DNA of 64,000 nt from assembly GCA_934182615.1 (NCBI GenBank), contig CAKPRO010000006.1:4771-68770 (forward strand), in the 5' to 3' direction. The notes below the pieces were generated by a model that saw only the letters and a program-made list of their open reading frames with translations, was not told the DNA's origin and did not search any database. Positions 4,774 to 48,884 of the stretch are shown in pieces (position 1 is the stretch's first letter; every line of letters begins with the position of its first letter). Origin of the DNA: an uncultured Bacilli bacterium (GTDB taxonomy: Bacteria; Bacillota_I; Bacilli_A; RF39; UBA660). The position numbers were made by a program, and so were the translations under genes.

Positions 4774-5895
4774 CTACTTTTTCTTACATTTATTTAAAAC
4801 TATTAATGGTATCTTCATCTCATCTTCAGTTAAACCAGCATGAGTTGACTTATGAATATGACCAACATTCCTATATTTAAAATATTTATTACTATAGGCT
4901 AAAGCAAAATAATCTCCTAGTGAATCTCTAAAATATTTATGTTCAGTACCATTACCTAATAACTTACTATTAATAAGTTCTTCTTTAGTCATTAATACAA
5001 AATAATTACTAAAGTATTTATTAAATAGATAAACAAATTCTTCCTCTCTACCATCTTTTATTTTAAAACTACATAGTCTTCCTTCAAAAGACGTATCTCC
5101 AGCAAGAGTATCAAATATATCTTTATAATCTTCTAATATAATAGTATCACAATTAATATGACCATGATCCGCTACTACAATAAGTAATGTATCATCAGAT
5201 ATAGTATTATATAATTCTTCTACTTTTTTATTAATCAACTCAAAATAATCTCTAGTCTCTTTACTATCAGTACCAGTAATATGCATAGTAGTATCTGGTT
5301 CAGGATTATATACATAAATATAATTTTTATCTTTAACATTTAAACTACTTTTAATTTTATTTATCATATCATCAATATCTTCATATTTATTTTCATTAAA
5401 TGAAGCAATTAATTTAGCATAATGTTTTCCATCTTCATTTATTAATTCACAAATATCTTTATATGGAAAATATTTTCTAGCTAGTGATACACTATCAGCA
5501 TCTATATCAGTATCTTTAATTTTATTAGTAAACATTGTTACTATTTTATCCTCTTTTTTAAAATATAAATCCCAAGCAAGCCATCCATGTTCCACTGGTG
5601 TAAGACCAGTAAGCATTGATGTAGTTGAAGCAGTTGTAGTCGCTGGTACTACTGAAGATATTTCTTTTAACATATTTCTATAAAGAAAACTATTTTCTCC
5701 TAATAATTTTTTTATTAATCTTGATCCCATTCCATCAAATAATATAACTACTACATTTTTTGGTTTATATTCTTCTAATATTTTGTCAATATCACTTAAA
5801 GTATTATGATAGACATCAAGTTCAAAATATCTCCTAATACTAGATGCTAAACTAACAATACTATTATCATATTCTGGTAATATAAACTTATCCAT
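4774..5895 (-). CDS. Alkaline phosphatase superfamily protein (type I phosphodiesterase / nucleotide pyrophosphatase-like)
   Basis: Motifs VVILFDGMGSRL, TTASTTSMLTGLTPVEHGW and VVADHGH. Likely start is MDKFILPEY at 5895, after AAGGAAGTGG. The track start at 5949 is a TTG inside the terminator hairpin. Confidence 0.7.
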   Translation of the reverse strand: MDKFILPEYDNSIVSLASSIRRYFELDVYHNTLSDIDKILEEYKPKNVVVILFDGMGSRLIKKLLGENSFLYRNMLKEISSVVPATTTASTTSMLTGLTPVEHGWLAWDLYFKKEDKIVTMFTNKIKDTDIDADSVSLARKYFPYKDICELINEDGKHYAKLIASFNENKYEDIDDMINKIKSSLNVKDKNYIYVYNPEPDTTMHITGTDSKETRDYFELINKKVEELYNTISDDTLLIVVADHGHINCDTIILEDYKDIFDTLAGDTSFEGRLCSFKIKDGREEEFVYLFNKYFSNYFVLMTKEELINSKLLGNGTEHKYFRDSLGDYFALAYSNKYFKYRNVGHIHKSTHAGLTEDEMKIPLIVLNKCKKK

Positions 5896-6361: not shown

Positions 6362-8092
6362 TTATGAATTTAAAGATTCAGTCTCATAAAGATTTCTATA
6401 TATCTTACAACTATTTAATAATTCCTTATGTGTGCCCGTTGCTATTACCTTACCACCATCAACAACATGAATAATATCAGCATCCATAATCGTAGATAAT
6501 CTATGAGCCACTATTACAATAGTATGATCATTAACTAAATTATCAATAGTCTTCTTAATATAATCTTGAGAATTATTATCTAAAGCTGAAGTAGCTTCAT
6601 CAAATAAAATCACTTCACTACCCTTAGATAAAGTTCTAGCAATAGATAGTCTTTGTTTTTGACCACCAGATAAATTAATACCAGACTCTCCTAATACAGT
6701 ATCATACCCTTTAGGTAAAGACATAATATAATCATCTAAATAAGCCATCTTAGAATATTCTCTTATCTTCTTAAGAGATATATTCTTATTAATTAATTTA
6801 AAATTTTCTTTAATAGTTCTATTAAAAACAAAAGGTTCCTGTCTAATTATTGATATATGTTTTCTTAATTCATCTTCACTTAAGTCTTTAATATTAATAC
6901 CATCTAACAATATCTCCCCACTAGTAGTATCAAATATTCTAGTAATTAAGTTAAATAAAGTACTCTTACCCTGACCAGAAGCTCCTACTACAGCAATCTT
7001 CTTATTAGGTTCAATCTTTAAACTAAAATTATTTAATATATTACCCTCATCAGGATAATTAAAATTAACATCTTTAAATTCAATTACCCCTTTAACATTA
7101 ACTAACTTCTTATTGCCAAACTCTTCATCTTTATATAATCTATTCTCTAATATATCATTTACTCTTGATATAGATACACTAACCTTCTGATATGTCTGAG
7201 TTAAGTCATTAATATTCTCTATTAACCAAGTAAACCTATATACATAATAAGTCATAGCAATAAAAAAAGTTAAACTAATCATCTTATAATATAATAATAT
7301 AACACAAGTAGCAAATACTCCGCATTCTAATATAGATTTTAATAATCTAGTCTTTATATTAAAACTCTTCTGAATATCAATCTCTTTACTAGATTTATTA
7401 TATATATCCTTAATAATACTAGTCATATCACTAATTAAATTATTTTTAATACCTAATGTTTTAATTTCTCTTATACCTCTAATAGACTCCGTAGTTAAAG
7501 AAGTAAACTTATCTTGCTCTTTTCTTCTCTCTTTATGTATATCTTTAAGTAATGGATTATATTTCTTTAATATTAAGAATAATATTGAAACTATAAGTAG
7601 TATTTCTACTCCTACTATCCAAGAATTGATAAAAATATAGATTATGACAATTATTGATGCCACTAGTGATGATATCATATTAAGTAATCTACCAAAAGCA
7701 AAACTTAAAGTATCAGCATCACTTGTTATTCTGTTTATTATTTCTCCTGATGACATCTTTTCATAAGCAACTGAGGGTAAACATAATGCTTTCTTATAAG
7801 TATAAAATCCTAACTTTCTAGTTAACTTACTCTCTTCTTTATATAATATAGAATTAGCATAATGTAGTACTATTCCATCCATTGTTATTTCTAATACAAA
7901 ATATATTCCTAGGAATATTAAGGCATTCTTTATATCAAGTATAGTAATAAACTCTACTACTTTACCATTTAGGTAACCAGTAAAGACCTCACATATTCCA
8001 GATATAAATATTATGATACTTGCAAATATAAGTTTACTTAAATCTTCTTTAACTAATTTTAATAGAGGTTTAAATTCTTTTATACTCTTCAT
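6362..8092 (-). CDS. ABC exporter, fused permease-ATPase (MsbA/multidrug type)
   Basis: 576 aa with an N-terminal 6-TM region. Walker A GASGQGKST, signature LSGGQKQRLSIAR, Walker B ILFDEATSALD. Confidence 0.9.
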   Translation of the reverse strand: MKSIKEFKPLLKLVKEDLSKLIFASIIIFISGICEVFTGYLNGKVVEFITILDIKNALIFLGIYFVLEITMDGIVLHYANSILYKEESKLTRKLGFYTYKKALCLPSVAYEKMSSGEIINRITSDADTLSFAFGRLLNMISSLVASIIVIIYIFINSWIVGVEILLIVSILFLILKKYNPLLKDIHKERRKEQDKFTSLTTESIRGIREIKTLGIKNNLISDMTSIIKDIYNKSSKEIDIQKSFNIKTRLLKSILECGVFATCVILLYYKMISLTFFIAMTYYVYRFTWLIENINDLTQTYQKVSVSISRVNDILENRLYKDEEFGNKKLVNVKGVIEFKDVNFNYPDEGNILNNFSLKIEPNKKIAVVGASGQGKSTLFNLITRIFDTTSGEILLDGINIKDLSEDELRKHISIIRQEPFVFNRTIKENFKLINKNISLKKIREYSKMAYLDDYIMSLPKGYDTVLGESGINLSGGQKQRLSIARTLSKGSEVILFDEATSALDNNSQDYIKKTIDNLVNDHTIVIVAHRLSTIMDADIIHVVDGGKVIATGTHKELLNSCKIYRNLYETESLNS

Positions 8093-25971: not shown

Positions 25972-25999
25972 AAGAAAAAAGCTAGTCATAATAACTAGC
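25972..25999 (-). terminator. Intrinsic terminator
   Basis: Minus strand has GCUAGUUAUUAUGACUAGC followed by UUUUUUCUUUU. It overlaps the stop of the 25995-26543 gene. Confidence 0.65.
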
Positions 26000-26543
26000 C
26001 ATTTAATGTAGCATTCTTACCAGTAGCATATAAATCAAATGATAATGTTTTATTTTGCATAGTATTTGGATTAGTATAATCTTTACCATTAAACCATAAA
26101 TATAAAGTATATTTATCTGTAGTAGTATTAACTACTCTATCAGTAAATAATGTTAAAGTAGTAGTGCCACTACTAGCATAAGTTATATCTTTAAAATTAC
26201 CTTTAGTAACTAAAGTACTATCATTATAATATAATTCATATATAAATGATTCTTCTTTTAATTCACTTGGCATAGTAGTTAAATCCATATATAAACTCAT
26301 AGTACTACCTTCTTCACTTGCTATAACTGTTATATCTTTCTTAATACCTTCTTCTTTACTGTCTACTGGTATTAAAGTACCAGTAACATTACTTCCTCCA
26401 TTAAAAGTAACAGTACTGCCTTCAATACCTACACTAACATTAATATTAGAAGCACTATTCCATCTATAATAAGCATAAGTACCACCAATCATTAATATAA
26501 TTAACCCTATTATTCCTATTATTAATCCTTTATTATTTTTCAT
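25995..26543 (-). CDS. Secreted protein with SipW-type (TasA/camelysin-class) signal peptide
   Basis: N-terminus MKNNKGLIIGIIGLIILMIGGTYAYYRW. It shares a beta-rich domain with the N-terminal regions of 26557-27903 and 42498-44009 (YTLYLWF). Confidence 0.6.
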   Translation of the reverse strand: MKNNKGLIIGIIGLIILMIGGTYAYYRWNSASNINVSVGIEGSTVTFNGGSNVTGTLIPVDSKEEGIKKDITVIASEEGSTMSLYMDLTTMPSELKEESFIYELYYNDSTLVTKGNFKDITYASSGTTTLTLFTDRVVNTTTDKYTLYLWFNGKDYTNPNTMQNKTLSFDLYATGKNATLNG

Positions 26544-26556
26544 ATCTATCCTCTCA

Positions 26557-27903
26557 CTAACTTGGTTGTCCTGTAGTTACTGTTACTGCATTGTATGTAG
26601 TACTTCCTATTGTTTTAGCATTAGTAGTACCTGTTACAAATGTTGTACCTGAACTTCCATTTACTGCTTTATTCCAGTCAAACGCCTTACCAGAATTATT
26701 ATATATGATTTTTAAATTGGGATTATTTATATATTCTACACCAGCAAAAGAAGATCCAGTGTCATTCGAAGTTTCAAAAGCACTACCGGATATACTTGAT
26801 AAATTAGAACCATAATCTATTAATACATAATCCAAATTGTTATTCATAAATGCACCATAGCCTATATCAATTACTGGAGCCGGTATAATAACATCTGTTA
26901 ATTTGTTATAAGCAAATGCGTAACTATCTATTGTGGTCAATGAATTTGATAGTGTAACACTCACCAAATTATTTGACGTAAAAGATTGTTCTCCAATAGA
27001 TAATATTGTGTTAGGCATTATAACACTTGAAATATTAGTGGATTGACTGCAACTATTACCTCCAATCATAGAACTATAACTATATTCAGCACATGCAAAT
27101 CCTTCTTTTATTTTTGTTATTTTATACCCAGCAATAGTATCAGGAATAACTATATCATTAACTACTTTATATCCATTACTATTTCCTTCATAACAATTAT
27201 AACCAACTGAAGATAGTGATGCCGTTTTATTTGTTTCATCTTTATCAGTGATATTGAAACAATATTCAGGTGTAGGTTCTACATATTTACCTTGTTCTGC
27301 ATCAGCACTTATATTACCAATAAATGTTGCTGATGTTATACTATTACCTGCTAGGGCATTATCTACATAGATTACTACTAAATATTTATATATTTCTGTA
27401 TTAGATAATTGTTTGGTAAGTAGTGTTATAGTATCACTACTTGTAATACTACCAGTAGATACTATATCAAATGATTGATTAAGTAAAGAATCTACTGTTA
27501 CCGAAGATGGCGTTGTTATTGTACTAGTATTATCTAACACTACATACTTAAGTGCTCCTTTACTATCTCCAGTAGTAAATGCATCTGATATATTAGTTAC
27601 ATTTAAATATATAGAACCATATCCTTCAATAGTACAAGTAGACTTAATACCTATATTAACCGCTGATATACCTATTCCATTCTTAATAGTAAATTTATTA
27701 CTACTAATTAGATCTGATTCATTAAGTAATTTTAAATTACCACTTATATCTTGTCCTTTAGTATAATCTATAGTAAAACATCCACTTGTTAATCCTATAT
27801 TTATTTTACTACTCGTCCATGTTAGTATAGCGTATGTTAATCCCGATATAGCTAGTATTAATATTATTACTCCTAGTATTATTAATTTCTTTTTCTTTTC
27901 CAT
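26557..27903 (-). CDS. Surface protein with SipW-type signal and C-terminal BspA-like leucine-rich repeats
   Basis: Signal LAISGLTYAILTW. C-terminal LRR units include IPDTIAGYKITKI and SVTLSNSLTTIDSYAFAYNKLTDVIIP. Confidence 0.7.
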   Translation of the reverse strand: MEKKKKLIILGVIILILAISGLTYAILTWTSSKINIGLTSGCFTIDYTKGQDISGNLKLLNESDLISSNKFTIKNGIGISAVNIGIKSTCTIEGYGSIYLNVTNISDAFTTGDSKGALKYVVLDNTSTITTPSSVTVDSLLNQSFDIVSTGSITSSDTITLLTKQLSNTEIYKYLVVIYVDNALAGNSITSATFIGNISADAEQGKYVEPTPEYCFNITDKDETNKTASLSSVGYNCYEGNSNGYKVVNDIVIPDTIAGYKITKIKEGFACAEYSYSSMIGGNSCSQSTNISSVIMPNTILSIGEQSFTSNNLVSVTLSNSLTTIDSYAFAYNKLTDVIIPAPVIDIGYGAFMNNNLDYVLIDYGSNLSSISGSAFETSNDTGSSFAGVEYINNPNLKIIYNNSGKAFDWNKAVNGSSGTTFVTGTTNAKTIGSTTYNAVTVTTGQPS

Positions 27904-27922
27904 GATATCTTCCTTTCTGACA

Positions 27923-27975
27923 TAGTAAAAAGACTATGAAAGACTAGTATTACTACTAGTTACTTCATAGTCTTT
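27923..27975 (-). terminator. Conserved leader terminator, copy 1
   Basis: Minus strand has AAAGACUAUGAAG-(nested hairpin)-CUUUCAUAGUCUUU followed by UUACU, about 20 nt before the ATG at 27903. Confidence 0.7.
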
Positions 27976-28003
27976 ATCTATATTATTATTTAATTTATTT
28001 AAG

Positions 28004-28066
28004 TTAGTTTTGTGCCCCCCCCCTAATTAACTTCTGGTTAACGTTTTTGCATAGTTCTTTATTCAT
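28004..28066 (-). CDS. Leader ORF 1 (20 aa as sequenced) containing the G9 tract
   Basis: SD AAAGGAGG, 9 nt, then the ATG at 28066. Translation is MNKELCKNVNQKLIRGGAQN-stop. With 8 or 11 G the frame continues to the TAG inside the 3' arm of the terminator. Confidence 0.5.
   Translation of the reverse strand: MNKELCKNVNQKLIRGGAQN
28015..28023 (-). repeat. Homopolymeric G9 tract (C9 on plus strand)
   Basis: Counted directly. The equivalent tracts are G6 (44119-44124) and G10 (46190-46199) in the paralogous leaders. Confidence 0.9.
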
Positions 28067-28088
28067 GGTGGGAGGCCTCCTTTCACTG

Positions 28089-28152
28089 TTGATTTGCGAA
28101 TTAATTGGGATCGAAAACTATCGAATTATTTGGGATCTCAATTGCAAATCAA
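28089..28152 (-). promoter_or_regulatory. Conserved imperfect palindrome / 5'-UTR stem-loop, copy 1
   Basis: TTGATTTGCGAATTAATTGGGATC ... GGATCTCAATTGCAAATCAA. The same arms are found at 44203-44240 and 46259-46330. Confidence 0.6.
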
Positions 28153-28171
28153 TTCTCTTACTTATGAATAA

Positions 28172-28200
28172 ATAATACCATAAGTTTAAATAAATTACAA
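28172..28200 (-). promoter_or_regulatory. Sigma-A type promoter with extended -10 (leader 1)
   Basis: Minus strand has TTGTAA, a 17 nt spacer ending in TGg, then TATTAT. Confidence 0.55.
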
Positions 28201-30879: not shown

Positions 30880-30956
30880 TGGTCGGGAAGACAGGATTTG
30901 AACCTGCGACCTCTACGTCCCAAGCGTAGCGCTCTACCAAGCTAAGCTACTTCCCG
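30880..30956 (-). tRNA. tRNA-Pro (anticodon UGG)
   Basis: rc reads CGGGAAGTAGCTTAGCTTGGTAGAGCGCTACGCTTGGGACGTAGAGGTCGCAGGTTCAAATCCTGTCTTCCCGACCA. It folds as a cloverleaf with anticodon loop CUUGGGA and an encoded CCA. Confidence 0.95.
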
Positions 30957-30963
30957 AAAAAAA

Positions 30964-31040
30964 TGGTGGAGAATGAGGGACTCGAACCCTTGACCCTCTG
31001 CGTGCAAGGCAGATGCTCTAGCCAACTGAGCTAATTCCCC
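30964..31040 (-). tRNA. tRNA-Ala (anticodon UGC)
   Basis: rc reads GGGGAATTAGCTCAGTTGGCTAGAGCATCTGCCTTGCACGCAGAGGGTCAAGGGTTCGAGTCCCTCATTCTCCACCA. It has the G3:U70 identity pair and anticodon loop CUUGCAC. Confidence 0.95.
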
Positions 31041-35707: not shown

Positions 35708-35737
35708 AAAAATGTCAGTTAATTCTGACATTTTTTT
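35705..35737. terminator. Bidirectional terminator between convergent lexA and the 35736 gene
   Basis: AAAAAATGTCAG-ttaatt-CTGACATTTTTTT. Confidence 0.75.
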
Positions 35738-37403
35738 AATCTTCTTTTTTATATAAAGTAACTATTTCTACTCTACTACTATTAATAGTACTAGGCTCAA
35801 ATCCAGTTTGAGGAGGCATTATATCACCAGTACCAGTATTCTTATCATAGTAGTAAGTAACATATATTGTACCATCAATATATTCTCCACTAGTAGGTCC
35901 TTCTACCATAATAAATGTATATCCATCAAATTCTTTCTTAACAGTAGTATATTCATTACCTACTTTATCAGTAATAGTTATTTCATCAGTTAGTTTATTA
36001 CCATCACTATCTACATAATTAATAACTACAGTACCTTCCTTAATAGAATACGTAAATTGCATATTAACCATAAAGTCAAAACCAATATAAGAGTTTGGGG
36101 TATATCTACCAATATTCTTTAGTACACCTGATATAGTAGAAGTACTACTACTCTTAAGAATACCAGCACGTTCTGATATTTCACTATTACCTTTAGATTC
36201 ATCTCTCATATATGAACCTATAGAATAATCAGTACCAGTAACATTACTATTACTTAAATCTTTATTTTCTTTATATTCACCAGTATTCTCATCCTTTTCG
36301 TCAAAGTAGAAAGATAATCCTTCATTATAGAAATAATTGTATGCAAGTGCTAATACAGTACTATTTGTTTCAGTAGCAAAATCATAACCACCATCTTCAG
36401 TTCCACCAAAGCCAAATAAATCGTTAACAGCTGTTTCATTTAATTCAGATAAATTATTTGCTATACATTCACCATTACAATTAAATTTGTCATTATTATT
36501 ATAGAAATATAATAAATATTGTACTGGACTAGTAAATTCAGTATTTTTAATAGCAGTATCAATCGCCTTTTTAGCAGTATTATATCTTCTCAAATCTATC
36601 ATATCTAATCCAAGCGCAGCATATGCTGAATTATATGCATAAATAGGATCAGTATCAGATAGTATCTCTCTAATTATACCTTTTGAAAAAGAATCTAATC
36701 TACTATAATTAGTATTATATTTTTTATTATAAAAATCTAATAAATATTTAGCATAATCTTCTATTCCATTATAACCATTTTCTTTTAAAGCCTCATCAAT
36801 ATTTTCATCAGTCATATTTCTACCTGAAGAATTAGGCACAAGTTCTTTAAGAGCTGTATTATAATTTCTTCTAAAAGTAAAACCATTAGGTATATCTATT
36901 TGATTAAAGAATTTATCTCCAGTATTTCCTTCTACTTTATCATATACTACAGGTTCAGTCGGAAATATTTCAAAAGAAGTATCATCAAAGTAATAATCAT
37001 TTTTAGAATAATTATTTATAACAATATTAACTCTAATTTTATCCCCTGATTGAAATGGATTTGAATATTGAATATTATCTTCATCAATACGTTCATATCC
37101 TATTTTTTTATTGTAATCATATACTGCTTTTGCTATTTTTTGAAATACTTCAGGAGCAATAACGATACTTTTTTCATTATAATTTTCTGTAAGTGTTATA
37201 TTAACAGTAACAGCACCACCTATATACCAACCAAATTTTATCTTTGATAAATCATATTCTACTATAAAATTATCATTAGATTCAGAAACTAATTTTTCTG
37301 GATTAATTGTATCCCACTTAGATTCTGCTAAAACAGTAGAATTAAACATTAACCCTATTACTAAAACTAGTAATAATCTGCTTATTTTTTTCATTCTATT
37401 CAC
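35736..37403 (-). CDS. Secreted surface protein with C-terminal MucBP-like domain and PPQTG tail
   Basis: Signal peptide ..NSTVLAESK. The C-terminus reads VVINYVDSDGNKLTDEITITDKVGNEYTTVKKEFDGYTF..NTGTGDIMPPQTGFEPSTINSSRVEIVTLYKKED. Confidence 0.7.
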   Translation of the reverse strand: MNRMKKISRLLLVLVIGLMFNSTVLAESKWDTINPEKLVSESNDNFIVEYDLSKIKFGWYIGGAVTVNITLTENYNEKSIVIAPEVFQKIAKAVYDYNKKIGYERIDEDNIQYSNPFQSGDKIRVNIVINNYSKNDYYFDDTSFEIFPTEPVVYDKVEGNTGDKFFNQIDIPNGFTFRRNYNTALKELVPNSSGRNMTDENIDEALKENGYNGIEDYAKYLLDFYNKKYNTNYSRLDSFSKGIIREILSDTDPIYAYNSAYAALGLDMIDLRRYNTAKKAIDTAIKNTEFTSPVQYLLYFYNNNDKFNCNGECIANNLSELNETAVNDLFGFGGTEDGGYDFATETNSTVLALAYNYFYNEGLSFYFDEKDENTGEYKENKDLSNSNVTGTDYSIGSYMRDESKGNSEISERAGILKSSSTSTISGVLKNIGRYTPNSYIGFDFMVNMQFTYSIKEGTVVINYVDSDGNKLTDEITITDKVGNEYTTVKKEFDGYTFIMVEGPTSGEYIDGTIYVTYYYDKNTGTGDIMPPQTGFEPSTINSSRVEIVTLYKKED

Positions 37404-37456: not shown

Positions 37457-39166
37457 TTAATCTTCTTTTTTATATACAGTAATAACTTCTACTCTACTAC
37501 TATTAATAGTACTAGGCTCAAATCCAGTTTGAGGAGGCATTATATCACCAGTACCAGTATTCTTATCATAATAGTAAGTAACATATATTGTATCAAAATC
37601 ATATTCTCCACTAGTAGGTCCTTCTACCATAATGAATGTATAATCATCAAATTCTTTCTTAATAGTAGTATATTCACTACCTACTTCACCAGTAATAGTA
37701 ACTTCTTCAGTTAATTTATTACTATCACTATCTAAATAGTTAATAACTACTTTACCAATATTATCATGAGCAGCCTTAATAGCTAAAGCACCAGCTATTT
37801 CTCCATCTTCAGTAACTGAAGTATATTCTCCACCTTCAATTAAATCAATATGAAGATTCTCTTTATCATGTGCTTCCCATCTACTATTTTCAGCATCATC
37901 GTACCAACCATTTATTTTATGTTCACAATCATCAAGAATCCAATCTTCTCCTACATTACTAAAAGTAACAGTACCAATATTATAGATATCATCACCAGCT
38001 AATCTAGCATGATTGTTATATAATTTAACATTCTTACTAATTGTCATAATACCAGTATTATAAATACCACCACCATATTGAGGAATCATTTTTCCATCAA
38101 TAGTAACTAAACCATTATTCATAATCTCAGTCATACTACCAACATAAACTTCACCTCTATTAGTAATGCCTCTTGTATAATTATTATTAATTTTTACAGT
38201 AGCATTATCTTCAAAAACTACTTTAGCATTTCCATAGTAATTAGCAATGTTAATAGTAGCTCCATTATATTTACCAACAGAATCAAGTCCTCTACCAAAA
38301 CCATTACCAGTCATATTTAAAGTACCATTATCTTTAATTCTAACTTCACCACCATATTGCCAAATACCAACACTACTATTATTATTAATATTTAATGTTG
38401 TACCTTCATTAACAATAACATAATCTAATTCATATAAAGTAAAACCAATTTCATTACTACTATAGTCAGCAGTACTACCATTCTTAAGTTCTAATCTTCC
38501 ACCAACAAGTCCTTGTCTAGCACAATCAGTAACTGAAATATGTGAGTTATCTGCAGTTATATCAAACCAATTTGTACCATTACCAGCACTTGAATTACTA
38601 ATATCACTTATCTTAAGTAATGAATTATTAAATAAATTAATATAAGCATATTTATCTTCAACATCACCTTGCATAAATGCAGTATAAGTCATATCTTTAG
38701 CTATTAATTTAGAATTATTTAAGTTAATAGTAGCTTCTGGAGAAGCATATAAGCCATGTATTCTTAGTGTATATGTTGAATCATTTAAATTAAGTACACC
38801 AGTTGAAGACATATAAACACTCCAAGCATTTTGATTATCATTATCATTAGCATGATCTACAGTAACATTATTTAAAGTAACATTACTTGAAATACTAAGT
38901 CTGCCATCATCACTAGGTAACTTAGAAATAGTAATAGTTTTATTATTACCATTAATTGTAATACTATTATTTATTGCAATAGTAGTTTCAATAGAAGCAT
39001 CATTGATAAGTTCAATAACATCACCATCTTTAGCCTCTTCAATAGCGGCATCTAATGTATTATATTCATTATCCCCTATTTTAGCAGTTACTTCTTCTGC
39101 TTTAACACCAGTAATACAAAAACATAGAGATATTAAAGCAAGTAAAAATAATTTTGTTTTTTTCAT
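37457..39166 (-). CDS. Secreted surface protein (beta-helix-like repeats) with C-terminal MucBP-like domain and PPQTG tail
   Basis: Signal peptide ..CITGVKAEEV. The central region is Asn/Gly-rich and repetitive. The last ~95 aa are nearly identical to 35736-37403. Confidence 0.7.
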   Translation of the reverse strand: MKKTKLFLLALISLCFCITGVKAEEVTAKIGDNEYNTLDAAIEEAKDGDVIELINDASIETTIAINNSITINGNNKTITISKLPSDDGRLSISSNVTLNNVTVDHANDNDNQNAWSVYMSSTGVLNLNDSTYTLRIHGLYASPEATINLNNSKLIAKDMTYTAFMQGDVEDKYAYINLFNNSLLKISDISNSSAGNGTNWFDITADNSHISVTDCARQGLVGGRLELKNGSTADYSSNEIGFTLYELDYVIVNEGTTLNINNNSSVGIWQYGGEVRIKDNGTLNMTGNGFGRGLDSVGKYNGATINIANYYGNAKVVFEDNATVKINNNYTRGITNRGEVYVGSMTEIMNNGLVTIDGKMIPQYGGGIYNTGIMTISKNVKLYNNHARLAGDDIYNIGTVTFSNVGEDWILDDCEHKINGWYDDAENSRWEAHDKENLHIDLIEGGEYTSVTEDGEIAGALAIKAAHDNIGKVVINYLDSDSNKLTEEVTITGEVGSEYTTIKKEFDDYTFIMVEGPTSGEYDFDTIYVTYYYDKNTGTGDIMPPQTGFEPSTINSSRVEVITVYKKED

Positions 39167-42331: not shown

Positions 42332-42385
42332 CATTTCTACCACCTCTACATATATTATAATATATATTTCTTTATTTTAAAAGAA

Positions 42386-42425
42386 AAAACTACCTAACTT
42401 TACACAAGTTATGTAGTTTTTATAT
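42386..42425 (-). terminator. Intrinsic terminator after the 42498-44009 gene
   Basis: Minus strand has AAAAACUACAUAAC-loop-GUUAGGUAGUUUUUU followed by CUUUU. Confidence 0.6.
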
Positions 42426-42497
42426 TATTTATAGCCTCTTATGAGTCTATAAATAAATAGTTATAAGATATCATAGTCGGGGTTAAGTACTTTCTAA

Positions 42498-44009
42498 CTA
42501 GGATATATGTAAATTATATGGACTACCACTAGTACCATCACCACTACTTATAGATACATCTTTATCTAAATATACTGTTGGATATACATAAGTTCCGTTT
42601 GAATATGCATAAGCAGATCTTAATTGTCCATCTGAAGCCAAGCGAAAAAGAGAAGTTTTATCATAAGCAAGTATAGCTAATAACCACTTATAATCACCAG
42701 TATAAAGCCAATTATTACTCCTACACTCATAATTATTATTACTACTATTATAATTATAAATAGTAAGACCATTACATTTACTAAGATCTGCTGCATAACC
42801 ATAATCACTTGGAGATGCTAAAGCAACGTAACCATTCCATTCAGTATCATTTCCTGCATAAACGTTACCAGATACTCTCTCAGTATTATAATAAACATTA
42901 GGAAACATATCAATAGAAGTTGTGCCTCTTAAGTACCAAGTACTTTCACTTATCATATTTCTAGTAGTGTCATTTTTTAAACCAATGTTACCCATATTAC
43001 ACGTACTAATATTATCAACTGAAGTCGCACCAGAATAGCAACTACCATCTTGCCTATTCCAATATAAACTGCCACCATATTCACTTTCATAATTTGGATT
43101 TAATAATTTCATAAGTCTAGAAGATGGCCAATTACTATTTCCAGTAGTAGCAACATTACCACTATTATCCCAAGAATAAATTCCAATATTATCTTTTCTT
43201 ACAATTTTTACTTTACCATCAACAATACCAATAATTCTCCATAATTCACAAGTACTTGAAGATTGATTACCATAATTATCACAATTAAAATAAACATAAT
43301 TATTAGGATTAGCACCATAATACCTAATATTACCACTTGCATCTGTCATTAGACCATTAGATTCAGTATATTGATAATTAATATTATTATTAATAACAAT
43401 TTTTTTAGAATCATTCTTATTTAATCTTTTAATCTTATAAATAATAGAATTAGAATATATTTCATCATCTATAACTTTCATTGAAGCCTCACACCTAACA
43501 GTAGCACTAATAGTAGCATCCTCTGCTGAAGAAGCATTTTCAACAGTTTCATCAAACCACAAGTATACAGTATACATAGTAGTAGTAGCTTTCAAAGGAA
43601 TATTAACTGCTAATAAATAAGATTCATTTGAAGAAACACCACCTAAAGTACCTTCCGATATTTTACTAGTCCCCTCTACTACAACATACTTTAAAGCATT
43701 ACTACCACTAAGAGCAGAACTAATTTTTGTAATATCTAAATATATATGGCCATATATATCATAAGTATTATCTTTTTTATACAAAGATATATCTATACTA
43801 TTTCCACCAGTATATTCAGTACTTGGATTTAAAATACTCGATGTAATATCAGTTCCTTTTGTATAATTAATATAATAATCCAAACCCTTAGTAATAGTAT
43901 TAACATTAACCGAAGCAAGTACATATTTATAATAAGCATAAGTACTTCCAACTATCGAAATAATTAATACAGTAATTCCAAATATCATATATATTTTATA
44001 TTTATTCAT
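42498..44009 (-). CDS. Secreted protein with SipW-type signal peptide
   Basis: Signal IISIVGSTYAYYKY. The N-terminal domain is shared with the 25995 and 26557 proteins (ALKYVVVEG, YTVYLWF). Likely start is the ATG at 44009. The track GTG at 44021 is the SD. Confidence 0.65.
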   Translation of the reverse strand: MNKYKIYMIFGITVLIISIVGSTYAYYKYVLASVNVNTITKGLDYYINYTKGTDITSSILNPSTEYTGGNSIDISLYKKDNTYDIYGHIYLDITKISSALSGSNALKYVVVEGTSKISEGTLGGVSSNESYLLAVNIPLKATTTMYTVYLWFDETVENASSAEDATISATVRCEASMKVIDDEIYSNSIIYKIKRLNKNDSKKIVINNNINYQYTESNGLMTDASGNIRYYGANPNNYVYFNCDNYGNQSSSTCELWRIIGIVDGKVKIVRKDNIGIYSWDNSGNVATTGNSNWPSSRLMKLLNPNYESEYGGSLYWNRQDGSCYSGATSVDNISTCNMGNIGLKNDTTRNMISESTWYLRGTTSIDMFPNVYYNTERVSGNVYAGNDTEWNGYVALASPSDYGYAADLSKCNGLTIYNYNSSNNNYECRSNNWLYTGDYKWLLAILAYDKTSLFRLASDGQLRSAYAYSNGTYVYPTVYLDKDVSISSGDGTSGSPYNLHIS

Positions 44010-44026
44010 TCTTTTCTCCACACAAA

Positions 44027-44076
44027 AAAGACTATGAAAAAATACTAATACTTCTATTAGTTATTTCATAGTCTTT
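44027..44076 (-). terminator. Conserved leader terminator, copy 2
   Basis: Minus strand has AAAGACUAUGAAA-loop-UUUCAUAGUCUUU followed by UUUGUG. Confidence 0.7.
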
Positions 44077-44184
44077 ATTTATATTATTATTTATTATACT
44101 TAGATTAGATTTTTGAATCCCCCCAACACGTACAAAGGTACTAGTTAACAAGTGGCTAACTTTCGTTATTTTTCTCTCGTTCAT
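44032..44184 (-). CDS. Leader ORF 2 (50 aa, open frame through the terminator)
   Basis: SD GAGGAGGTG then ATG at 44184. Translation is MNERKITKVSHLLTSTFVRVGGIQKSNLSIINNNINKDYEITNRSISIFS-stop. The stop TAG lies in the 3' arm of the terminator. Confidence 0.5.
   Translation of the reverse strand: MNERKITKVSHLLTSTFVRVGGIQKSNLSIINNNINKDYEITNRSISIFS
44119..44124 (-). repeat. Homopolymeric G6 tract
   Basis: Counted directly (C6 on the plus strand). Confidence 0.9.
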
Positions 44185-44202
44185 AGGGGCACCTCCTCTC
44201 TG

Positions 44203-44240
44203 TTGATTTGCGAATTAATTGATATATTTTCGTAAATCAA
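44203..44240 (-). promoter_or_regulatory. Conserved imperfect palindrome / 5'-UTR stem-loop, copy 2
   Basis: TTGATTTGCGAA-ttaattgatatatt-TTCGTAAATCAA. Confidence 0.6.
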
Positions 44241-44262
44241 ACTCATCTTACCCTACATATCA

Positions 44263-44291
44263 ATAGTATCACAAAATTAAACATTTATCAA
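44263..44291 (-). promoter_or_regulatory. Sigma-A type promoter with extended -10 (leader 2)
   Basis: Minus strand has TTGATA, a 17 nt spacer ending in TGa, then TACTAT. Confidence 0.55.
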
Positions 44292-44328
44292 TATCAAATA
44301 AACACTTTAATCAGAAATAATCATATTA

Positions 44329-46083
44329 TTAACTAACAACTATAACATTAGTCAAATTACTAAAATTAGTATTAATCCATTGTTTCTCAGTATTACTTTT
44401 TACATATATTGCAGCATTATTTGGTATCATATAAAACATCATACTAACATTAGTCAGAGCACTTCCAAAAGTCATATTTCGCATATCGATAAGCATTAGT
44501 TTACTATCATAACTAAACATTGAACTCATATTAGTTACATTTGATGTATCAAAGCCACTTATATTCAGTTTAGTAAGTGATGTACAATACTGAAACATAT
44601 TAAGCATTGTCGTAACTTTAGAAGTATTAAAGTTACTTAAGTCTAACTCTTTAAGTGCATTACATTTTACAAATACTGCATTCATATTAGTCACATTTGA
44701 TGTATCAAAATTAGATAAGTCTATACTTTCTAACGAATTACAATTATAAAACATTTGATACATACTTGTGATTTTGGATGTATTAAAGCTAGATAAATTT
44801 ATACTTGTTAATTTATAACAATGAGCAAACATAACAGTCATATTAGCTACATTTGATGTATTGAAATTGCTTAAATTCAAATTCGTTAATGATTCACAAT
44901 GTGAAAACATACCTTCCATATTAATTACACTTAATGTATTAAAACTACTTATATTTAAGTCTGTAAGTGAAGTACAATATTTGAAAAGGTATTGCATATT
45001 CGTTACATTTGATGTATCAAAATTAGATAAATTCAAACTTTTTATTGAAATACAATTTGCAAACATATACTTCATATCTATTACACTTGATGTATCAAAA
45101 CTAGATAAATCTATGTTTCCCAAACTAACACAATCATTAAACATATAATATATATTTTTAACTTTAGAAGTATTAAAACTACTTACATTTACAGAGGTTA
45201 ATTTTGCACAACCATTAAATAATTCTTCCATACTGGTTACTTTACTTGTATCAAACATACTTAGATCCAAACTAACTACTGATTCACTTTTTTTAAACAT
45301 TTTTACCATATATGTAGTATTTGATGTATCAAAGCCAGTAAAATCCATAGAAATAGTATTAGTTAAATAACTAAAAAGTGAATAACAATTACTAGGAGCA
45401 TATACCTTTCCACTCTCGCCGCCTATATATACATTATATAAATTATCACTGCTTCCCTTTGTGTACCATAACATGACACTACCATCGCCATTTTGTGATA
45501 CATCAAAATTTCCTATAGCATCAGCTGGTACAATATTATCATTAGCTATTGTAAGTGTTTCTATAGTATTTCTAACTAAAGTTGTGCCAAGAAAGTTAGA
45601 AGTTGCACTAACACCACTTTCAGCATTTCTTAATGTATTTATTTGTTTAACTTTATTTTTTACTAAAGTAACACCACTTGGCACTATTAAGTCTCCACCA
45701 TTTTCATAACCCAATATCGTACTTAAAGTAACAGTACTACTTGTAGTTCCATTATTTATTAATTTTAATTTAACAAATTTATTTTCCCCATAATTTATTA
45801 ATCCAGTTTCTGCATCTTTAGTATCTTCATATACTTTGACATCTATATTAGTTCCAGAGTATCCAACTCCATATTTTACAATCCCTTTATTAGCATTATT
45901 CACTTTATAATATACTTTTTTTGATGTTCTAGCAGGTAATTCTATACTAGTACTATCATTAACATCTATTATATAAGTATCATTTTCACCACTAGCAACA
46001 CTGGAAATTGCAAAAGTTTGATATAAAAATCCTATTAGAACTAATATAACAATTGTCAATATAATAATTACTCTCTTTTTCAT
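44329..46083 (-). CDS. BspA-family leucine-rich repeat surface protein (DUF285-type 26-residue repeats)
   Basis: More than 10 repeats of the type F..C.SL.SLDLSNFDTSNVTNM..MF. N-terminal signal/anchor. Likely start is the ATG at 46083. The track GTG at 46095 is the SD. Confidence 0.85.
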   Translation of the reverse strand: MKKRVIIILTIVILVLIGFLYQTFAISSVASGENDTYIIDVNDSTSIELPARTSKKVYYKVNNANKGIVKYGVGYSGTNIDVKVYEDTKDAETGLINYGENKFVKLKLINNGTTSSTVTLSTILGYENGGDLIVPSGVTLVKNKVKQINTLRNAESGVSATSNFLGTTLVRNTIETLTIANDNIVPADAIGNFDVSQNGDGSVMLWYTKGSSDNLYNVYIGGESGKVYAPSNCYSLFSYLTNTISMDFTGFDTSNTTYMVKMFKKSESVVSLDLSMFDTSKVTSMEELFNGCAKLTSVNVSSFNTSKVKNIYYMFNDCVSLGNIDLSSFDTSSVIDMKYMFANCISIKSLNLSNFDTSNVTNMQYLFKYCTSLTDLNISSFNTLSVINMEGMFSHCESLTNLNLSNFNTSNVANMTVMFAHCYKLTSINLSSFNTSKITSMYQMFYNCNSLESIDLSNFDTSNVTNMNAVFVKCNALKELDLSNFNTSKVTTMLNMFQYCTSLTKLNISGFDTSNVTNMSSMFSYDSKLMLIDMRNMTFGSALTNVSMMFYMIPNNAAIYVKSNTEKQWINTNFSNLTNVIVVS

Positions 46084-46099
46084 TTTTGCCTCCACAAAA

Positions 46100-46149
46100 A
46101 AAGACTATGAAAAAGCACTAATACTTCTATTAGTTATTTCATAGTCTTT
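46100..46149 (-). terminator. Conserved leader terminator, copy 3
   Basis: Minus strand has AAAGACUAUGAAA-loop-UUUCAUAGUCUUU followed by UUUUGUG. Confidence 0.7.
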
Positions 46150-46172
46150 ATTTATATTATTATTTATTATAC

Positions 46173-46241
46173 TTAGATTAGATTTTTGACCCCCCCCCCA
46201 ATTAACTTGTGGTTAACTTTTATAAATAATACTTTTTCCAT
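46173..46241 (-). CDS. Leader ORF 3 (22 aa as sequenced) containing the G10 tract
   Basis: SD AAAGGAGG then ATG at 46241. Translation is MEKVLFIKVNHKLIGGGVKNLI-stop. With 8 or 11 G the frame continues to the TAG in the terminator 3' arm. Confidence 0.5.
   Translation of the reverse strand: MEKVLFIKVNHKLIGGGVKNLI
46190..46199 (-). repeat. Homopolymeric G10 tract
   Basis: Counted directly (C10 on the plus strand). Confidence 0.9.
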
Positions 46242-46258
46242 AAGAGGGGCCTCCTTTC

Positions 46259-46330
46259 TGATTTGCGAATTAATTGAGATCAAAACTCTCGAATTATTTA
46301 GAATCTTTTTGGTAAAATTTTGCAAATCAA
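46259..46330 (-). promoter_or_regulatory. Conserved imperfect palindrome / 5'-UTR stem-loop, copy 3
   Basis: TGATTTGCGAATTAATTGAGATC ... TTTTGCAAATCA. Confidence 0.55.
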
Positions 46331-46360
46331 TTATCAATATCTTTTCTATCTTACATATCA

Positions 46361-46389
46361 ATAATATCATAATTAATTTTAAAATGCAA
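46361..46389 (-). promoter_or_regulatory. Sigma-A type promoter with extended -10 (leader 3)
   Basis: Minus strand has TTGCAT, a 17 nt spacer ending in TGa, then TATTAT. Confidence 0.55.
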
Positions 46390-46465
46390 TATTAATTTTT
46401 AAATTATTTATTTACAATAAATATCATTTTTGTTATACTATATATAGAGAATAAGGAGGAACATT

Positions 46466-47173: not shown

Positions 47174-47194
47174 AGATTACAAAAGTAATCTCTA
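47171..47194. terminator. Bidirectional hairpin between convergent mgtC-like gene and sigE
   Basis: TAGAGATTAC-aaaa-GTAATCTCTA. Confidence 0.55.
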
Positions 47195-47881
47195 TAATTT
47201 TATTATATTAGATAATTTTTTAATAACTTTCTTTTCAATTCTAGATATATAAGACTGTGATATTCCAAGTAAATTAGCTACTTCCTTCTGTGTCATTTCC
47301 TTTTTACCATTAAGTCCATATCTAAGTTCAATAATTTCTTTATCCCTTTTACCTAACTTATCTACTTCTTTATACATCAAATATTTATCAAGTTCATCTT
47401 CAATAGGCTTAGTAACAATATCTTCTTTAGTACCAAGAACATCTTCTAAATGAAGTTCATTACCTTCTGAATCAAAAGATAAAGAATCCTCAAATGATAC
47501 TTCAGTTCTTTTTTTCTTTGTTTTCCTAAGATACATAAGTATCTCATTATCTATACATCTAGAAGCATAAGTAGCAAGTTTAATATTCTTATCATTCTGA
47601 TAAGTATTAACTCCCTTAATTAATCCTATTGTCCCAATAGATACTAAATCTTCTAAATCTATCTTAGTATTTTCATATTTCTTAGCTAAAAATACTACTA
47701 ATCTAAGATTATGTTCTATAAGTTTATCCCTCGCATTCATATCACCATTTAAAAACATATTAACATATTTTTCTTCTTCTTCTTTACTAAAAGGTTCTGG
47801 TAATATATCTGTACTTCCTACAAAAAACAAATAATTAAGTTTACTAAATATTCTTCTAAGTAATTTAAGCATTCTCTTCAC
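47192..47881 (-). CDS. sigE: Sporulation sigma factor SigE (pro-sigma-E)
   Basis: Pro-sequence followed by YFVGSTDILPEPFSKEEE..HNLRLVVFLAKKYENT..ISIGTIGLIKGVNTY..KLATYASRCIDNEILMYLRK. Immediately downstream of spoIIGA. Confidence 0.85.
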   Translation of the reverse strand: MKRMLKLLRRIFSKLNYLFFVGSTDILPEPFSKEEEEKYVNMFLNGDMNARDKLIEHNLRLVVFLAKKYENTKIDLEDLVSIGTIGLIKGVNTYQNDKNIKLATYASRCIDNEILMYLRKTKKKRTEVSFEDSLSFDSEGNELHLEDVLGTKEDIVTKPIEDELDKYLMYKEVDKLGKRDKEIIELRYGLNGKKEMTQKEVANLLGISQSYISRIEKKVIKKLSNIIKL

Positions 47882-48618
47882 CCTTTCATAATATCTTTAT
47901 GTAATATAACATCTACTCCATCAATAAGTTTAGGACTATCAGAAAAACCTATTAAAATATTTCCCTTATACCCTATTCCATCAATAAATATAATATCTGG
48001 TTTAATACATTTAAGTAATCCTTCTCCACTCATAGTATAATAAGGAACTAATATATAATTATCTTCTCTAATATATTTATTAGATAATAATATAATAGGT
48101 CTCTTTTTATAAGGATCATATAAATTATTCCCCGTATCTACAAAACCTACTACTGATATCTTACTTTTATCTTTAAAATATATGTCTACCTTATAATAAT
48201 TATTATAAATATTTTTAATCTTTCTACTTTCTTTAATATATAATATTAAAACTAAACTACTAATAACAATTATAATAAAATAATTAATAAATATATTATT
48301 AGATACCTTAACATTAAATAAATATATAATACCCCCTATCAAAGTACTAAGTAAATACATATAAAATATATTTCTAAGTACATATTTAACTCCCTTATAT
48401 CCAAAAGATATAAGTACCATAATAATAATACTTATAACTTCAATTAATATCTTATTAATATTATTAAATAATAATACTGAAGAAATACCTCCTATCAAAG
48501 ATGAAATTATAATTCTAATAAGATTACTATTTCTCTTTAATATAATTGAAGTACCAAGTATAATCATAAAATCCATAATAGTATTAAACAAAAAAAATAA
48601 ATCAATATATATTCTCAT
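47878..48618 (-). CDS. spoIIGA: Sigma-E processing aspartic peptidase SpoIIGA
   Basis: MRIYIDLFFLFNTIMDFMIILGTSIILKR matches the SpoIIGA N-terminus. Has the VDTGN aspartic protease motif. The start is uncertain (48618 ATG or the 48669 GTG of the track). Confidence 0.8.
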   Translation of the reverse strand: MRIYIDLFFLFNTIMDFMIILGTSIILKRNSNLIRIIISSLIGGISSVLLFNNINKILIEVISIIIMVLISFGYKGVKYVLRNIFYMYLLSTLIGGIIYLFNVKVSNNIFINYFIIIVISSLVLILYIKESRKIKNIYNNYYKVDIYFKDKSKISVVGFVDTGNNLYDPYKKRPIILLSNKYIREDNYILVPYYTMSGEGLLKCIKPDIIFIDGIGYKGNILIGFSDSPKLIDGVDVILHKDIMKG

Positions 48619-48668
48619 ATATTGATTATAAAAAAAAGAATATAAATATCTTGTCGATTTATATTCCA

Positions 48669-48884
48669 CTATTCAAATAATTTATTCTCATCTCCAGAGC
48701 AATAGCCACCGCCTACTTTAGCACCTTCAACATATTCCTTACCAGAAATATTACATCCCATCTTAGTAACAGCATCTTGTAAATATCCTCCAAAGATTTT
48801 TACTAATCCTATTGCTACTACTGTAATTAAAGATATAATAAGTACATATTCTACTAATGTTTGACCTTTTCTATTCAACTTCAT
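48669..48884 (-). CDS. Flp-family (type IVb) prepilin-like protein
   Basis: MKLNRKGQTLVEYVLIISLITVVAIGLV matches the class III signal G/(Q)TLVEY motif plus a hydrophobic helix. Likely start is at 48884. Confidence 0.6.
   Translation of the reverse strand: MKLNRKGQTLVEYVLIISLITVVAIGLVKIFGGYLQDAVTKMGCNISGKEYVEGAKVGGGYCSGDENKLFE

Follow-up and report, generated by a model that had tools for sequence, protein, structure and literature searches.

Three related leader regions lie on the minus strand of a 64,000-nt stretch of DNA from an uncultured Bacilli bacterium (assembly GCA_934182615.1, contig CAKPRO010000006.1, positions 4,771 to 68,770; hereafter the window), each ahead of a gene for a secreted or anchored protein. 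Comparison of these leaders with their homologues suggests that each is probably a frame-gated transcription attenuator, in which the length of a homopolymeric G tract decides whether a short leader open reading frame (ORF) stays open into a terminator-like hairpin or closes short of it. In copy 2, the leader at the centre of this analysis, the tract is six Gs long (G6) and the long frame runs into the hairpin. The leader ORFs of copies 1 and 3, with G9 and G10, end ahead of it. An earlier note, made from the letters of the window, had proposed that the G tract, by setting the leader frame, puts copy 2 in the ON state and the other two copies in the OFF state, and all comparative tests that we ran fit this prediction.

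As that note had described, the leader ORF of copy 2 spans 50 codons (44184-44032), crosses the G6 tract and closes at a TAG that belongs to the 3' arm of the hairpin; the list of ORFs and the predicted fold agree on this. The stop codon (44034-44032) falls within the arm sequence TTCATAGTCTTT (44038-44027), 23 nt ahead of the ATG of the regulated gene and 12 nt ahead of the Shine-Dalgarno sequence of that gene. A stop-free run of 49 codons occurred in 0.44% of composition shuffles, and an open run of the 28 codons that follow the tract in 2.8%. The tract itself lies 110 nt upstream of the gene ATG and downstream of the promoter, in an ORF separate from the gene. Coordinates for all three leaders are collected in Table 1.

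A profile search found exactly three copies of the leader in the window, and their tracts are the only three runs of six or more Gs on either strand of the 64 kb. The promoter layout aligns across copies, with TTGTAA (28200-28195) and TATTAT (28177-28172) in copy 1 and TTGCAT (46389-46384) and TATTAT (46366-46361) in copy 3. Within the window, the 15-mer TTAATTCGCAAATCA of the 5' untranslated region (5' UTR) is confined to the three leaders. The leader ORF stops 28 nt ahead of the 5' arm of the hairpin in copy 1 and 23 nt ahead of it in copy 3; both copies are predicted to be OFF, and both would be ON at G8 or G11. When G5 to G12 were simulated in all three copies, the stop codon always landed in one of two places, within the 3' arm or 23-28 nt short of the 5' arm. 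Two details of the earlier note need amending. The segment between ATG and tract had been put at 21 nt longer in copy 2; it measures 60 nt there, against 43 nt in copy 1 and 42 nt in copy 3, a difference of 17-18 nt. The -1 or +2 change in G number that was said to open the long frame in both other copies holds for copy 1 (G9 to G8 or G11), whereas copy 3 (G10) needs +1 or -2 (G11 or G8).

Table 1. Positions in the window of the parts of the three leaders and of the genes behind them.
Feature	Coordinates	Strand	Details
Copy 2, promoter-like site	44263..44291	-	-35 TTGATA 44291-44286; 17-nt spacer; TG-extended -10 TACTAT 44268-44263; identified by consensus match
Copy 2, 5' UTR hairpin UUGAUUUACGAA...UUCGCAAAUCAA	44203..44240	-	Arms pair in centroid fold; includes 15-mer TTAATTCGCAAATCA (44218-44204)
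Copy 2, leader Shine-Dalgarno GAGGAGG	44192..44198	-	7-8 nt ahead of ATG 44184; read from sequence
Copy 2, C/U-rich tract CCCCU	44185..44189	-	Between Shine-Dalgarno and ATG; complementary to G tract
Copy 2, leader ORF	44032..44184	-	50 codons plus TAG; ATG start; reads MNERKITKVSHLLTSTFVRVGGIQKSNLSIINNNINKDYEITNRSISIFS; long frame, predicted ON
Copy 2, small hairpin GUUAGC-CACUU-GUUAAC	44144..44160	-	Inside leader ORF; reads V-S-H-L-L-T; from alignment and consensus fold
Copy 2, G6 homopolymer, frame-setting	44119..44124	-	60 nt after ATG
Copy 2, A+T-rich spacer, 42 nt	44077..44118	-	Long frame alone open; other frames stop 23 and 28 nt short of hairpin
Copy 2, intrinsic-terminator-like hairpin	44024..44076	-	Stem-loop 44076-44027 plus U6 44029-44024; outer stem AAAGACUAUGAAA/UUUCAUAGUCUUU; inner stem ACUAAUA/UAUUAGU
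Copy 2, regulated gene	42498..44009	-	503-aa protein; N-terminal hydrophobic segment; own Shine-Dalgarno GGAG 44019-44016; ATG at 44009
Copy 1, leader	27904..28200	-	ATG 28066; G9 28023-28015; 20-aa ORF; stop 28006-28004; hairpin 27975-27929 plus U5
Copy 1, C/U tract CCUCCCACC	28075-28067	-	Complementary to G tract
Copy 1, regulated gene	26557-27903	-	LRR_5 (BspA-type) protein; N-terminal hydrophobic segment
Copy 3, leader	46084..46389	-	ATG 46241; G10 46199-46190; 22-aa ORF; stop 46175-46173; hairpin 46149-46100 plus U7
Copy 3, C/U tract CCCCUCUU	46249-46242	-	Complementary to G tract
Copy 3, regulated gene	44329-46083	-	DUF285/PARCEL protein; N-terminal hydrophobic segment

The leader hairpin reads as a real terminator on its fold energy, the run of Us behind it and its compensatory changes. 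In copy 2 it folds at -19.7 kcal/mol (z = -5.4), and none of 200 shuffles folded equally well. Across the three copies the energies range from -19.7 to -22.1 kcal/mol and the z scores from -4.5 to -5.4, and each hairpin is followed by U5-U7. A consensus fold of 36 leaders places 19 base pairs in the hairpin, 10 of them with compensatory changes. At one pair, for example, 20 sequences have G-C where 13 have A-U; at another, 28 have A-U, 6 have G-C and 2 have C-G. A generic terminator scan of the window, whose rules ask for a loop of 3-8 nt and a minimum of three G-C pairs, passed over the leader hairpins; in its place, we assessed the terminator by folding against shuffles and by covariation.

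The inner stem of the terminator is also found away from leaders. An 18-nt form (ACTAATAGAAATATTAGT) together with a T run stands directly after the stop codons of ordinary genes at loci L290, L314, L318, L320, L325, L357 and others. The metagenome-assembled genomes (MAGs) concerned are mostly labelled Bacilli or Bacillota (low G+C), with Erysipelotrichaceae, Muribaculaceae and Candidatus Scybalousia also represented. This inner stem seems, from these positions, to be a commonly used terminator hairpin. The match in Candidatus Scybalousia (Bacteroidales) was considered as a leader and rejected; it is a plain terminator.

Homologues of the leader were collected with four DNA patterns: an 18-mer of the 5' UTR, the small hairpin plus a G run in genomes, the same pattern in metagenomes, and the inner terminator stem alone. 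Genomes and metagenomes together yielded 81 distinct leaders in which a Shine-Dalgarno sequence, an ATG and a terminator could all be recognised. The spacing between the first two is constant, both in these 81 leaders and in the 36-sequence alignment. In 81 of 81, one frame and no more continues past the tract without a stop as far as the 5' arm of the hairpin or further. The modal stop of this long frame lies 5 nt before the end of the 3' arm, and the second-longest frame reaches the arm in none of the leaders. Stops in the short frames come a median of 11 nt past the tract and at least 13 nt (median 26) ahead of the hairpin. The median peptide would be 44 aa long if the long frame is read and 19 aa long if a short one is. 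To judge this pattern we adopted a frame-specific null, in which the spacer is shuffled and the frame must also be open through the hairpin, in place of an any-frame null that was too weak. Under the frame-specific null, the chance is about 0.15 for each leader and 10^-13.8 for 17 divergent groups taken together.

The frame appears to be preserved by selection, as indels come in multiples of three and tract-free or interrupted variants stay in the long frame. L029 reads GGGTGGGGGG without the following A, where the window has GGGGGG plus A; the net gain is 3 nt and the long frame is kept. L048 carries an insertion of 9 nt in the spacer. In L342 the tract is substituted by GGTGGTGGTGGT, which encodes four Gly codons and again keeps the long frame. 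L369 (G5), L310 (AGGGAGGGGG) and L374 (AGGGAGGGAAAA) likewise keep to the long frame. L287 (GGGTGGTTGG) is locked in a short one, and its hairpin has decayed. Together, L342, L369, L310, L374 and L287 indicate that the tract region is read as codons. The homologue L344 has a G8 tract that is in frame.

Related MAGs carry several leaders each: at least seven in CAKPIH01, at least six in CAKOMD01 and at least eight in the 1.46-Mb chromosome CP091726.1. The genes downstream encode DUF285, LRR_5, Listeria-Bacteroides repeat and unknown proteins. Members of the family come from MAGs labelled Bacilli, Tenericutes, Clostridium sp. CAG:302 or CAG:321.

Tract length among the homologues ranges from G5 to G14. 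We defined a flank haplotype as sequence that is identical over 80 nt upstream and 100 nt downstream and is present in more than one contig. Ten of the 15 haplotypes so defined carry more than one tract length (G8/9, G9/10, G9/12, G8/11). One cluster with near-identical flanks contains G8 six times, G9 nine times, and G10 and G11 once each. As sequenced, 31 of the 81 leaders are in the ON register and 50 are OFF (13 need +1 and 37 need -1), and of the leaders with long tracts about one third are ON. Genes homologous to that of copy 2 are found behind long tracts in both states on identical flanks, as in L199 (G8, ON) and L250 (G9, OFF). Copy 2 itself is probably a stable, slow-switching and effectively constitutive ON copy, because its tract is short, has the same length in every assembly and, in one strain, is interrupted. 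The earlier note saw in the three leaders independently switching loci for alternative surface proteins. The products turn out to be unrelated secreted or anchored proteins and the tracts of copies 2 and 3 are invariant in seven assemblies, both of which qualify that description; at homologous loci, tract length does vary on identical flanks.

From this anatomy we infer a course of events that comprises leader translation, termination at the hairpin, ribosome-mediated read-through and a certain rate of switching. Transcription would begin at the sigma-A-type promoter, and the Shine-Dalgarno sequence and ATG would load a ribosome on the short leader ORF with its homopolymeric G tract. In the long frame, the ribosome would translate the spacer, the 5' arm and the loop and would halt at the UAG in the 3' arm. 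Sitting on the arms, it would block the hairpin, and RNA polymerase would go on to transcribe the surface-protein gene (ON). In either of the remaining frames, the ribosome would come off 23-28 nt upstream, the hairpin would form and transcription would end (OFF). The length of the tract would set the frame and would change by slipped-strand mispairing, and with several copies per genome, each would switch heritably and independently. As sequenced, copy 2 (G6) would be ON and copies 1 (G9) and 3 (G10) would be OFF.

Several observations weigh against frame-gated attenuation. The G6 of copy 2 and the G10 of copy 3 were each found in 7 of 7 assemblies, on two flank haplotypes, and contigs encoding an identical MgtC neighbour showed no tract polymorphism at the window's own loci. 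For copy 3 the constant length is an OFF register (loci L028-L036), which is odd for a hypermutable tract, and L064 holds the same short register with A plus G9. Selection for the OFF state, recent shared ancestry or some role of the exact length may account for the constancy of G10. Where contigs have low coverage, differences in tract length could stem from misassembly. Shuffling only the spacer makes a weak test, with any frame open at about 0.45 per leader. Antitermination also requires a ribosome close behind the polymerase, which is not assured in Bacillota. This worry is answered by the pil1/pil3 system of Streptococcus gallolyticus, because the mechanism was shown there with mutants of the ATG, the stop codon and the terminator and because it works in Lactococcus lactis (PMC3894217). 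Finally, the conserved C/U tract and the small hairpin are superfluous to the frame-switch model.

Short tracts are a further difficulty. In a first sample, leaders with G6-G7 were always ON (6 of 6). This rule was contradicted by the sample that did not require the small hairpin, where such tracts are mostly OFF (1 ON, 7 OFF), most of these short tracts coming from the single MAG chromosome CP091726.1, in which homopolymers are possibly unreliable and some start codons probably mis-called. A short tract locked in the ON state is not a general feature; we see it as a tendency of interrupted or replaced tracts only. In the same chromosome, surface genes behind leaders (L013, L014) break frame at an A run after the start (MKDYTKKQKKY, then a stop), and several G6-G7 leaders are out of frame. 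These frame breaks are either homopolymer assembly errors or a second, poly-A switch in the coding region.

The C/U tract is a distinct feature of these leaders. In 28 distinct leaders, the 9 nt ahead of the leader ATG are 78% pyrimidine and 48% C. At the same position, C accounts for 0% in 34 housekeeping genes of the window and for 4% in the downstream surface genes. Pairing with the G tract is predicted in the minimum-energy fold of copy 3 (GGCCCCUCUU with G10) and in the centroid fold of copy 2 (CCCCU). The C/U-G helix may be an extra layer that serves for pausing or synchronisation or that gates translation of the leader. The small hairpin reads GTTAAC-N5-GTTAAT in copies 1 and 3 (28042-28026 and 46217-46201), where it abuts the tract, and it lies 0-2 nt upstream of most tracts. 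Most of our sample was gathered with a pattern that requires this hairpin, which overstates its conservation; it was present in 25 of 45 candidates from the search that does not require it. We also considered the small hairpin as a mere peptide motif (V-N-x-x-L-I), and L374 retains N..LI with a broken stem.

A rather doubtful extension of frame-gated attenuation is that one tract sets both the reading frame and the strength of the helix enclosing the leader start codon. If this is true, the helix could pace RNA polymerase until the ribosome arrives, limit leader translation, or promote slippage at the RNA level. With about 6-10 loci in a 1.5-Mb genome, each capable of several heritable expression levels, surface variation would then be combinatorial. 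The helix would also be a cis-acting analogue, in an uncultured gut lineage, of the pairing between the small RNA (sRNA) RepG and its target G repeat.

We considered whether the frame might be changed at the RNA level, by polymerase slippage on G9-G10 or by ribosomal frameshifting at GGG, which would give a constant graded output instead of ON and OFF states. GGG codons are rare in this genome of 26% G+C, and the small hairpin that sits so close upstream of most tracts possibly aids slippage; Penno and colleagues are said to have described stem-loop-stimulated transcriptional slippage in insertion sequence (IS) elements in 2015. The constant G10 of copy 3 and the matching out-of-frame register of L064 look as if they were maintained, and about two thirds of the leaders with long tracts are OFF, yet their downstream genes are intact. 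Programmed recoding sites, however, normally hold one fixed offset, and all three registers are present here (31 in frame, 13 at +1 and 37 at -1). Tract length differs at the DNA level on identical flanks in the 10 of 15 haplotypes described above, and the tract-free or interrupted leaders L342, L369, L310 and L374 are fixed in the long frame. Recoding is an improbable account of these data. Slippage may add leakiness to the frame switch and is not needed to explain what we observed.

The leader could also be a structured RNA attenuator of a riboswitch-like, protein-bound or sRNA-bound kind, in which a helix between the G tract and the C/U tract is tuned by tract length and the ORF is incidental. 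The C/U tract is strongly and specifically conserved (48% C against 0-4%) and pairs with the G tract in the predicted folds. There is also a precedent in Helicobacter pylori, where the C/U-rich sRNA RepG exerts graded control through a length-variable G repeat in an mRNA leader (PMC8295292). However, the leaders match no Rfam family: two tRNAs alone reached the gathering threshold in the window, and relaxed thresholds gave chance microRNA-like matches to the hairpin. Moreover, RNA structure alone does not predict a stop-free frame in 81 of 81 leaders, indels in multiples of three, the replacement of the tract by GGT Gly codons, or a fixed spacing between Shine-Dalgarno sequence and ATG. We therefore regard an RNA attenuator of this kind as very unlikely. 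A glycine-sensing attenuator, in which the ribosome stalls at GGG, was dropped, as the leaders offer no alternative antiterminator helix and the regulated genes are non-metabolic.

A hairpin that does not terminate, with a long ORF that serves only the translation of the downstream gene, is a highly improbable arrangement. Re-initiation after the UAG or local unfolding would fit the short distances in copy 2 (12 nt from the leader stop to the gene Shine-Dalgarno sequence and 23 nt from the UAG to the gene ATG), and the stem is A-U rich, has two or three G-C pairs and failed the generic terminator scan. Against this, the Shine-Dalgarno sequence and ATG of the gene lie outside the hairpin, U5-U7 always follows it, and the inner stem with its T run recurs behind ordinary genes, where a plain terminator would sit. 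Finally, it is hardly credible that the tract differences are homopolymer sequencing or assembly errors and that the three leaders share one state: runs of G9-G10 are prone to error and coverage is low (2-5x) in several of the polymorphic contigs, but six independent short-read assemblies from at least four projects give exactly G10 and G6, and copy 2 differs from the other copies in its whole ORF layout, beyond tract length.

The leader appears to be built from two modules, a promoter/5' UTR module and a switch module, which are separable because each occurs without the other. In L026 and L013 the promoter/5' UTR module stands directly ahead of surface genes and the switch module is absent, and the switch module occurs without the 5' UTR hairpin in L027. 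At L026 (~6890-7160) and L013 (minus strand, ~5366-5383), the promoter/5' UTR module contains direct repeats GATCCCAA(A/T)TAATTCGCAAAT and has no leader ORF, G tract or terminator. A regulator could bind to these repeats, or they could form a stabilising structure at the 5' end.

The window has a G+C content of 24-31% and nearly all of its genes are on the minus strand. The surface genes behind the three leaders are embedded among the housekeeping genes mraZ, rsmH, PBP, ddl, ruvA, M23 peptidase, spoIIGA, sigE and mgtC, and the contigs that encode an identical MgtC derive from human gut metagenomes. There is no homology among the three regulated proteins. Searches of Pfam and of PDB sequences with the 503-aa product of the copy-2 gene gave no match. 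Searching NCBIfam with the N-terminal 50 residues did not confirm a signal-peptide class. Genes behind poly-G leaders share similar N-termini, for example ...GSTYAYYKY and ...GLTYAILTWTSS. An ORF of 182 aa (25995-26543, minus strand) begins 13 nt past the copy-1 LRR gene and has an N-terminus of the same type (..GGTYAYYRW..); it is probably co-switched with that gene. Homologues of this ORF, about 184 aa long, have their own poly-G leaders elsewhere, as in L114.

The segment from ddl to mgtC (42344-46465), which holds copies 2 and 3, is a variable cassette with two leader-plus-gene units in most strains. In L029 the cassette holds the copy-2 unit only. In L027 it consists of a single different DUF285 gene (646 aa) behind a G6 leader in the ON frame that lacks the 5' UTR hairpin. 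Within the copy-2 gene, an 8-bp sequence, AAGATTAA, is duplicated in tandem (43436-43421, minus strand). L029 and L032 have one AAGATTAA unit, and the gene is frameshifted into ORFs of 194 aa and 319 aa while the leader is still in the ON frame. Loss of an 8-bp unit may be a second route to silence the copy-2 gene.

Elsewhere in the window, two adjacent genes on the minus strand (35736-37403 and 37457-39166) encode proteins of about 560 aa with a C-terminal MucBP domain. They have no poly-G leader and are further candidates for mucus adhesins. spoIIGA and a gene for a sigE-like sigma factor adjoin mgtC (47192-48669, minus strand). The organism appears to retain sporulation genes, though related MAGs are labelled Tenericutes or Anaeroplasma. 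Two tRNA genes stand side by side at 30883-31040 (minus strand; Rfam 69.4 and 64.2 bits).

The closest known system is pil1/pil3 of S. gallolyticus, where the number of GCAGA repeats in a leader ORF puts the stop codon either at least 28-39 nt upstream of a terminator, with low expression, or inside or past the terminator, with high expression (PMC3894217, Danne 2014). The two systems have in common a repeat in a short leader ORF, a premature stem-loop terminator and a shift of frame with repeat number. A stop far upstream gives low expression in S. gallolyticus and is predicted from sequence to do so here, at a distance of 23-28 nt. A stop within or beyond the terminator gives high expression there through ribosome-induced destabilisation of the hairpin, and the same is predicted here. 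In both systems the targets are surface structures of gut-associated Gram-positive bacteria. In contrast, the leaders share no sequence homology, and a G homopolymer stands here in place of the 13-22 GCAGA copies of S. gallolyticus. One frame in three is long (ON) here, whereas in S. gallolyticus out-of-frame repeat numbers give the long ORF and in-frame numbers the short one. Several copies are present here (three in 64 kb, at least 6-8 in related MAGs), ahead of genes for LRR, DUF285 and unknown proteins, while the S. gallolyticus leaders precede pilus operons. The conserved C/U tract complementary to the repeat and the adjacent small hairpin also set the present leaders apart. We read the relation between the two systems as one of mechanism, not of descent.

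The leaders resemble the poly-G/C contingency loci within coding regions of Campylobacter jejuni, Neisseria and Haemophilus in that slippage at G8-G11 would turn a surface gene ON or OFF through the frame. Such G-tract ON/OFF states are documented in C. jejuni (PMC11955535). Unlike in the classical loci, the tract here lies outside both the regulated gene and its promoter spacer, in an upstream ORF of its own, and the predicted output is transcription termination. The structural protein would thus never be truncated, and a whole operon could be switched.

Attenuation at pyrBI and trp likewise depends on coupled translation of a leader peptide that decides whether an intrinsic terminator forms. 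The pyrBI leader ORF even runs through its terminator. There a metabolite is sensed via the kinetics of ribosome and polymerase (trp attenuation is summarised in PMC3894217), whereas here a heritable frameshift would be decisive. No alternative antiterminator helix was found in the present leaders. The H. pylori gene tlpB (hp0102) and RepG share with our leaders a length-variable G repeat in the leader that is paired by a C/U-rich RNA (PMC8295292). RepG is a trans-acting sRNA with graded effects on translation; our leaders have a C/U partner in cis, a translated tract and a terminator.

In Clostridioides difficile, cwpV and flgB are also phase-variable through premature termination in the leader of a surface-protein or flagellar operon. 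The cwpV leader-termination switch operates by DNA inversion. At both loci the switch is a site-specific inversion, and there is no repeat tract or leader peptide, unlike in the leaders described here; the flgB switch is listed in PMC12360218. In the full-text literature that we searched, S. gallolyticus was the sole case of attenuation by a repeat in a leader peptide, and we found no homopolymer version. On this comparison, the poly-G form appears to be a variant of the S. gallolyticus logic that was built independently, and for which we found no prior description.

The poly-G leader family is present in multiple copies across uncultured gut bacteria with small, low-G+C genomes, where it would control LRR, DUF285/PARCEL and unknown secreted proteins. 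Tract length modulo three offers a simple rule to predict which surface proteins are expressed, and this rule can be applied to metagenomic reads and metatranscriptomes. For annotators, the small ORFs and G tracts ahead of these surface genes would be regulatory elements. Stochastic surface variation in uncultured commensals thereby becomes testable.

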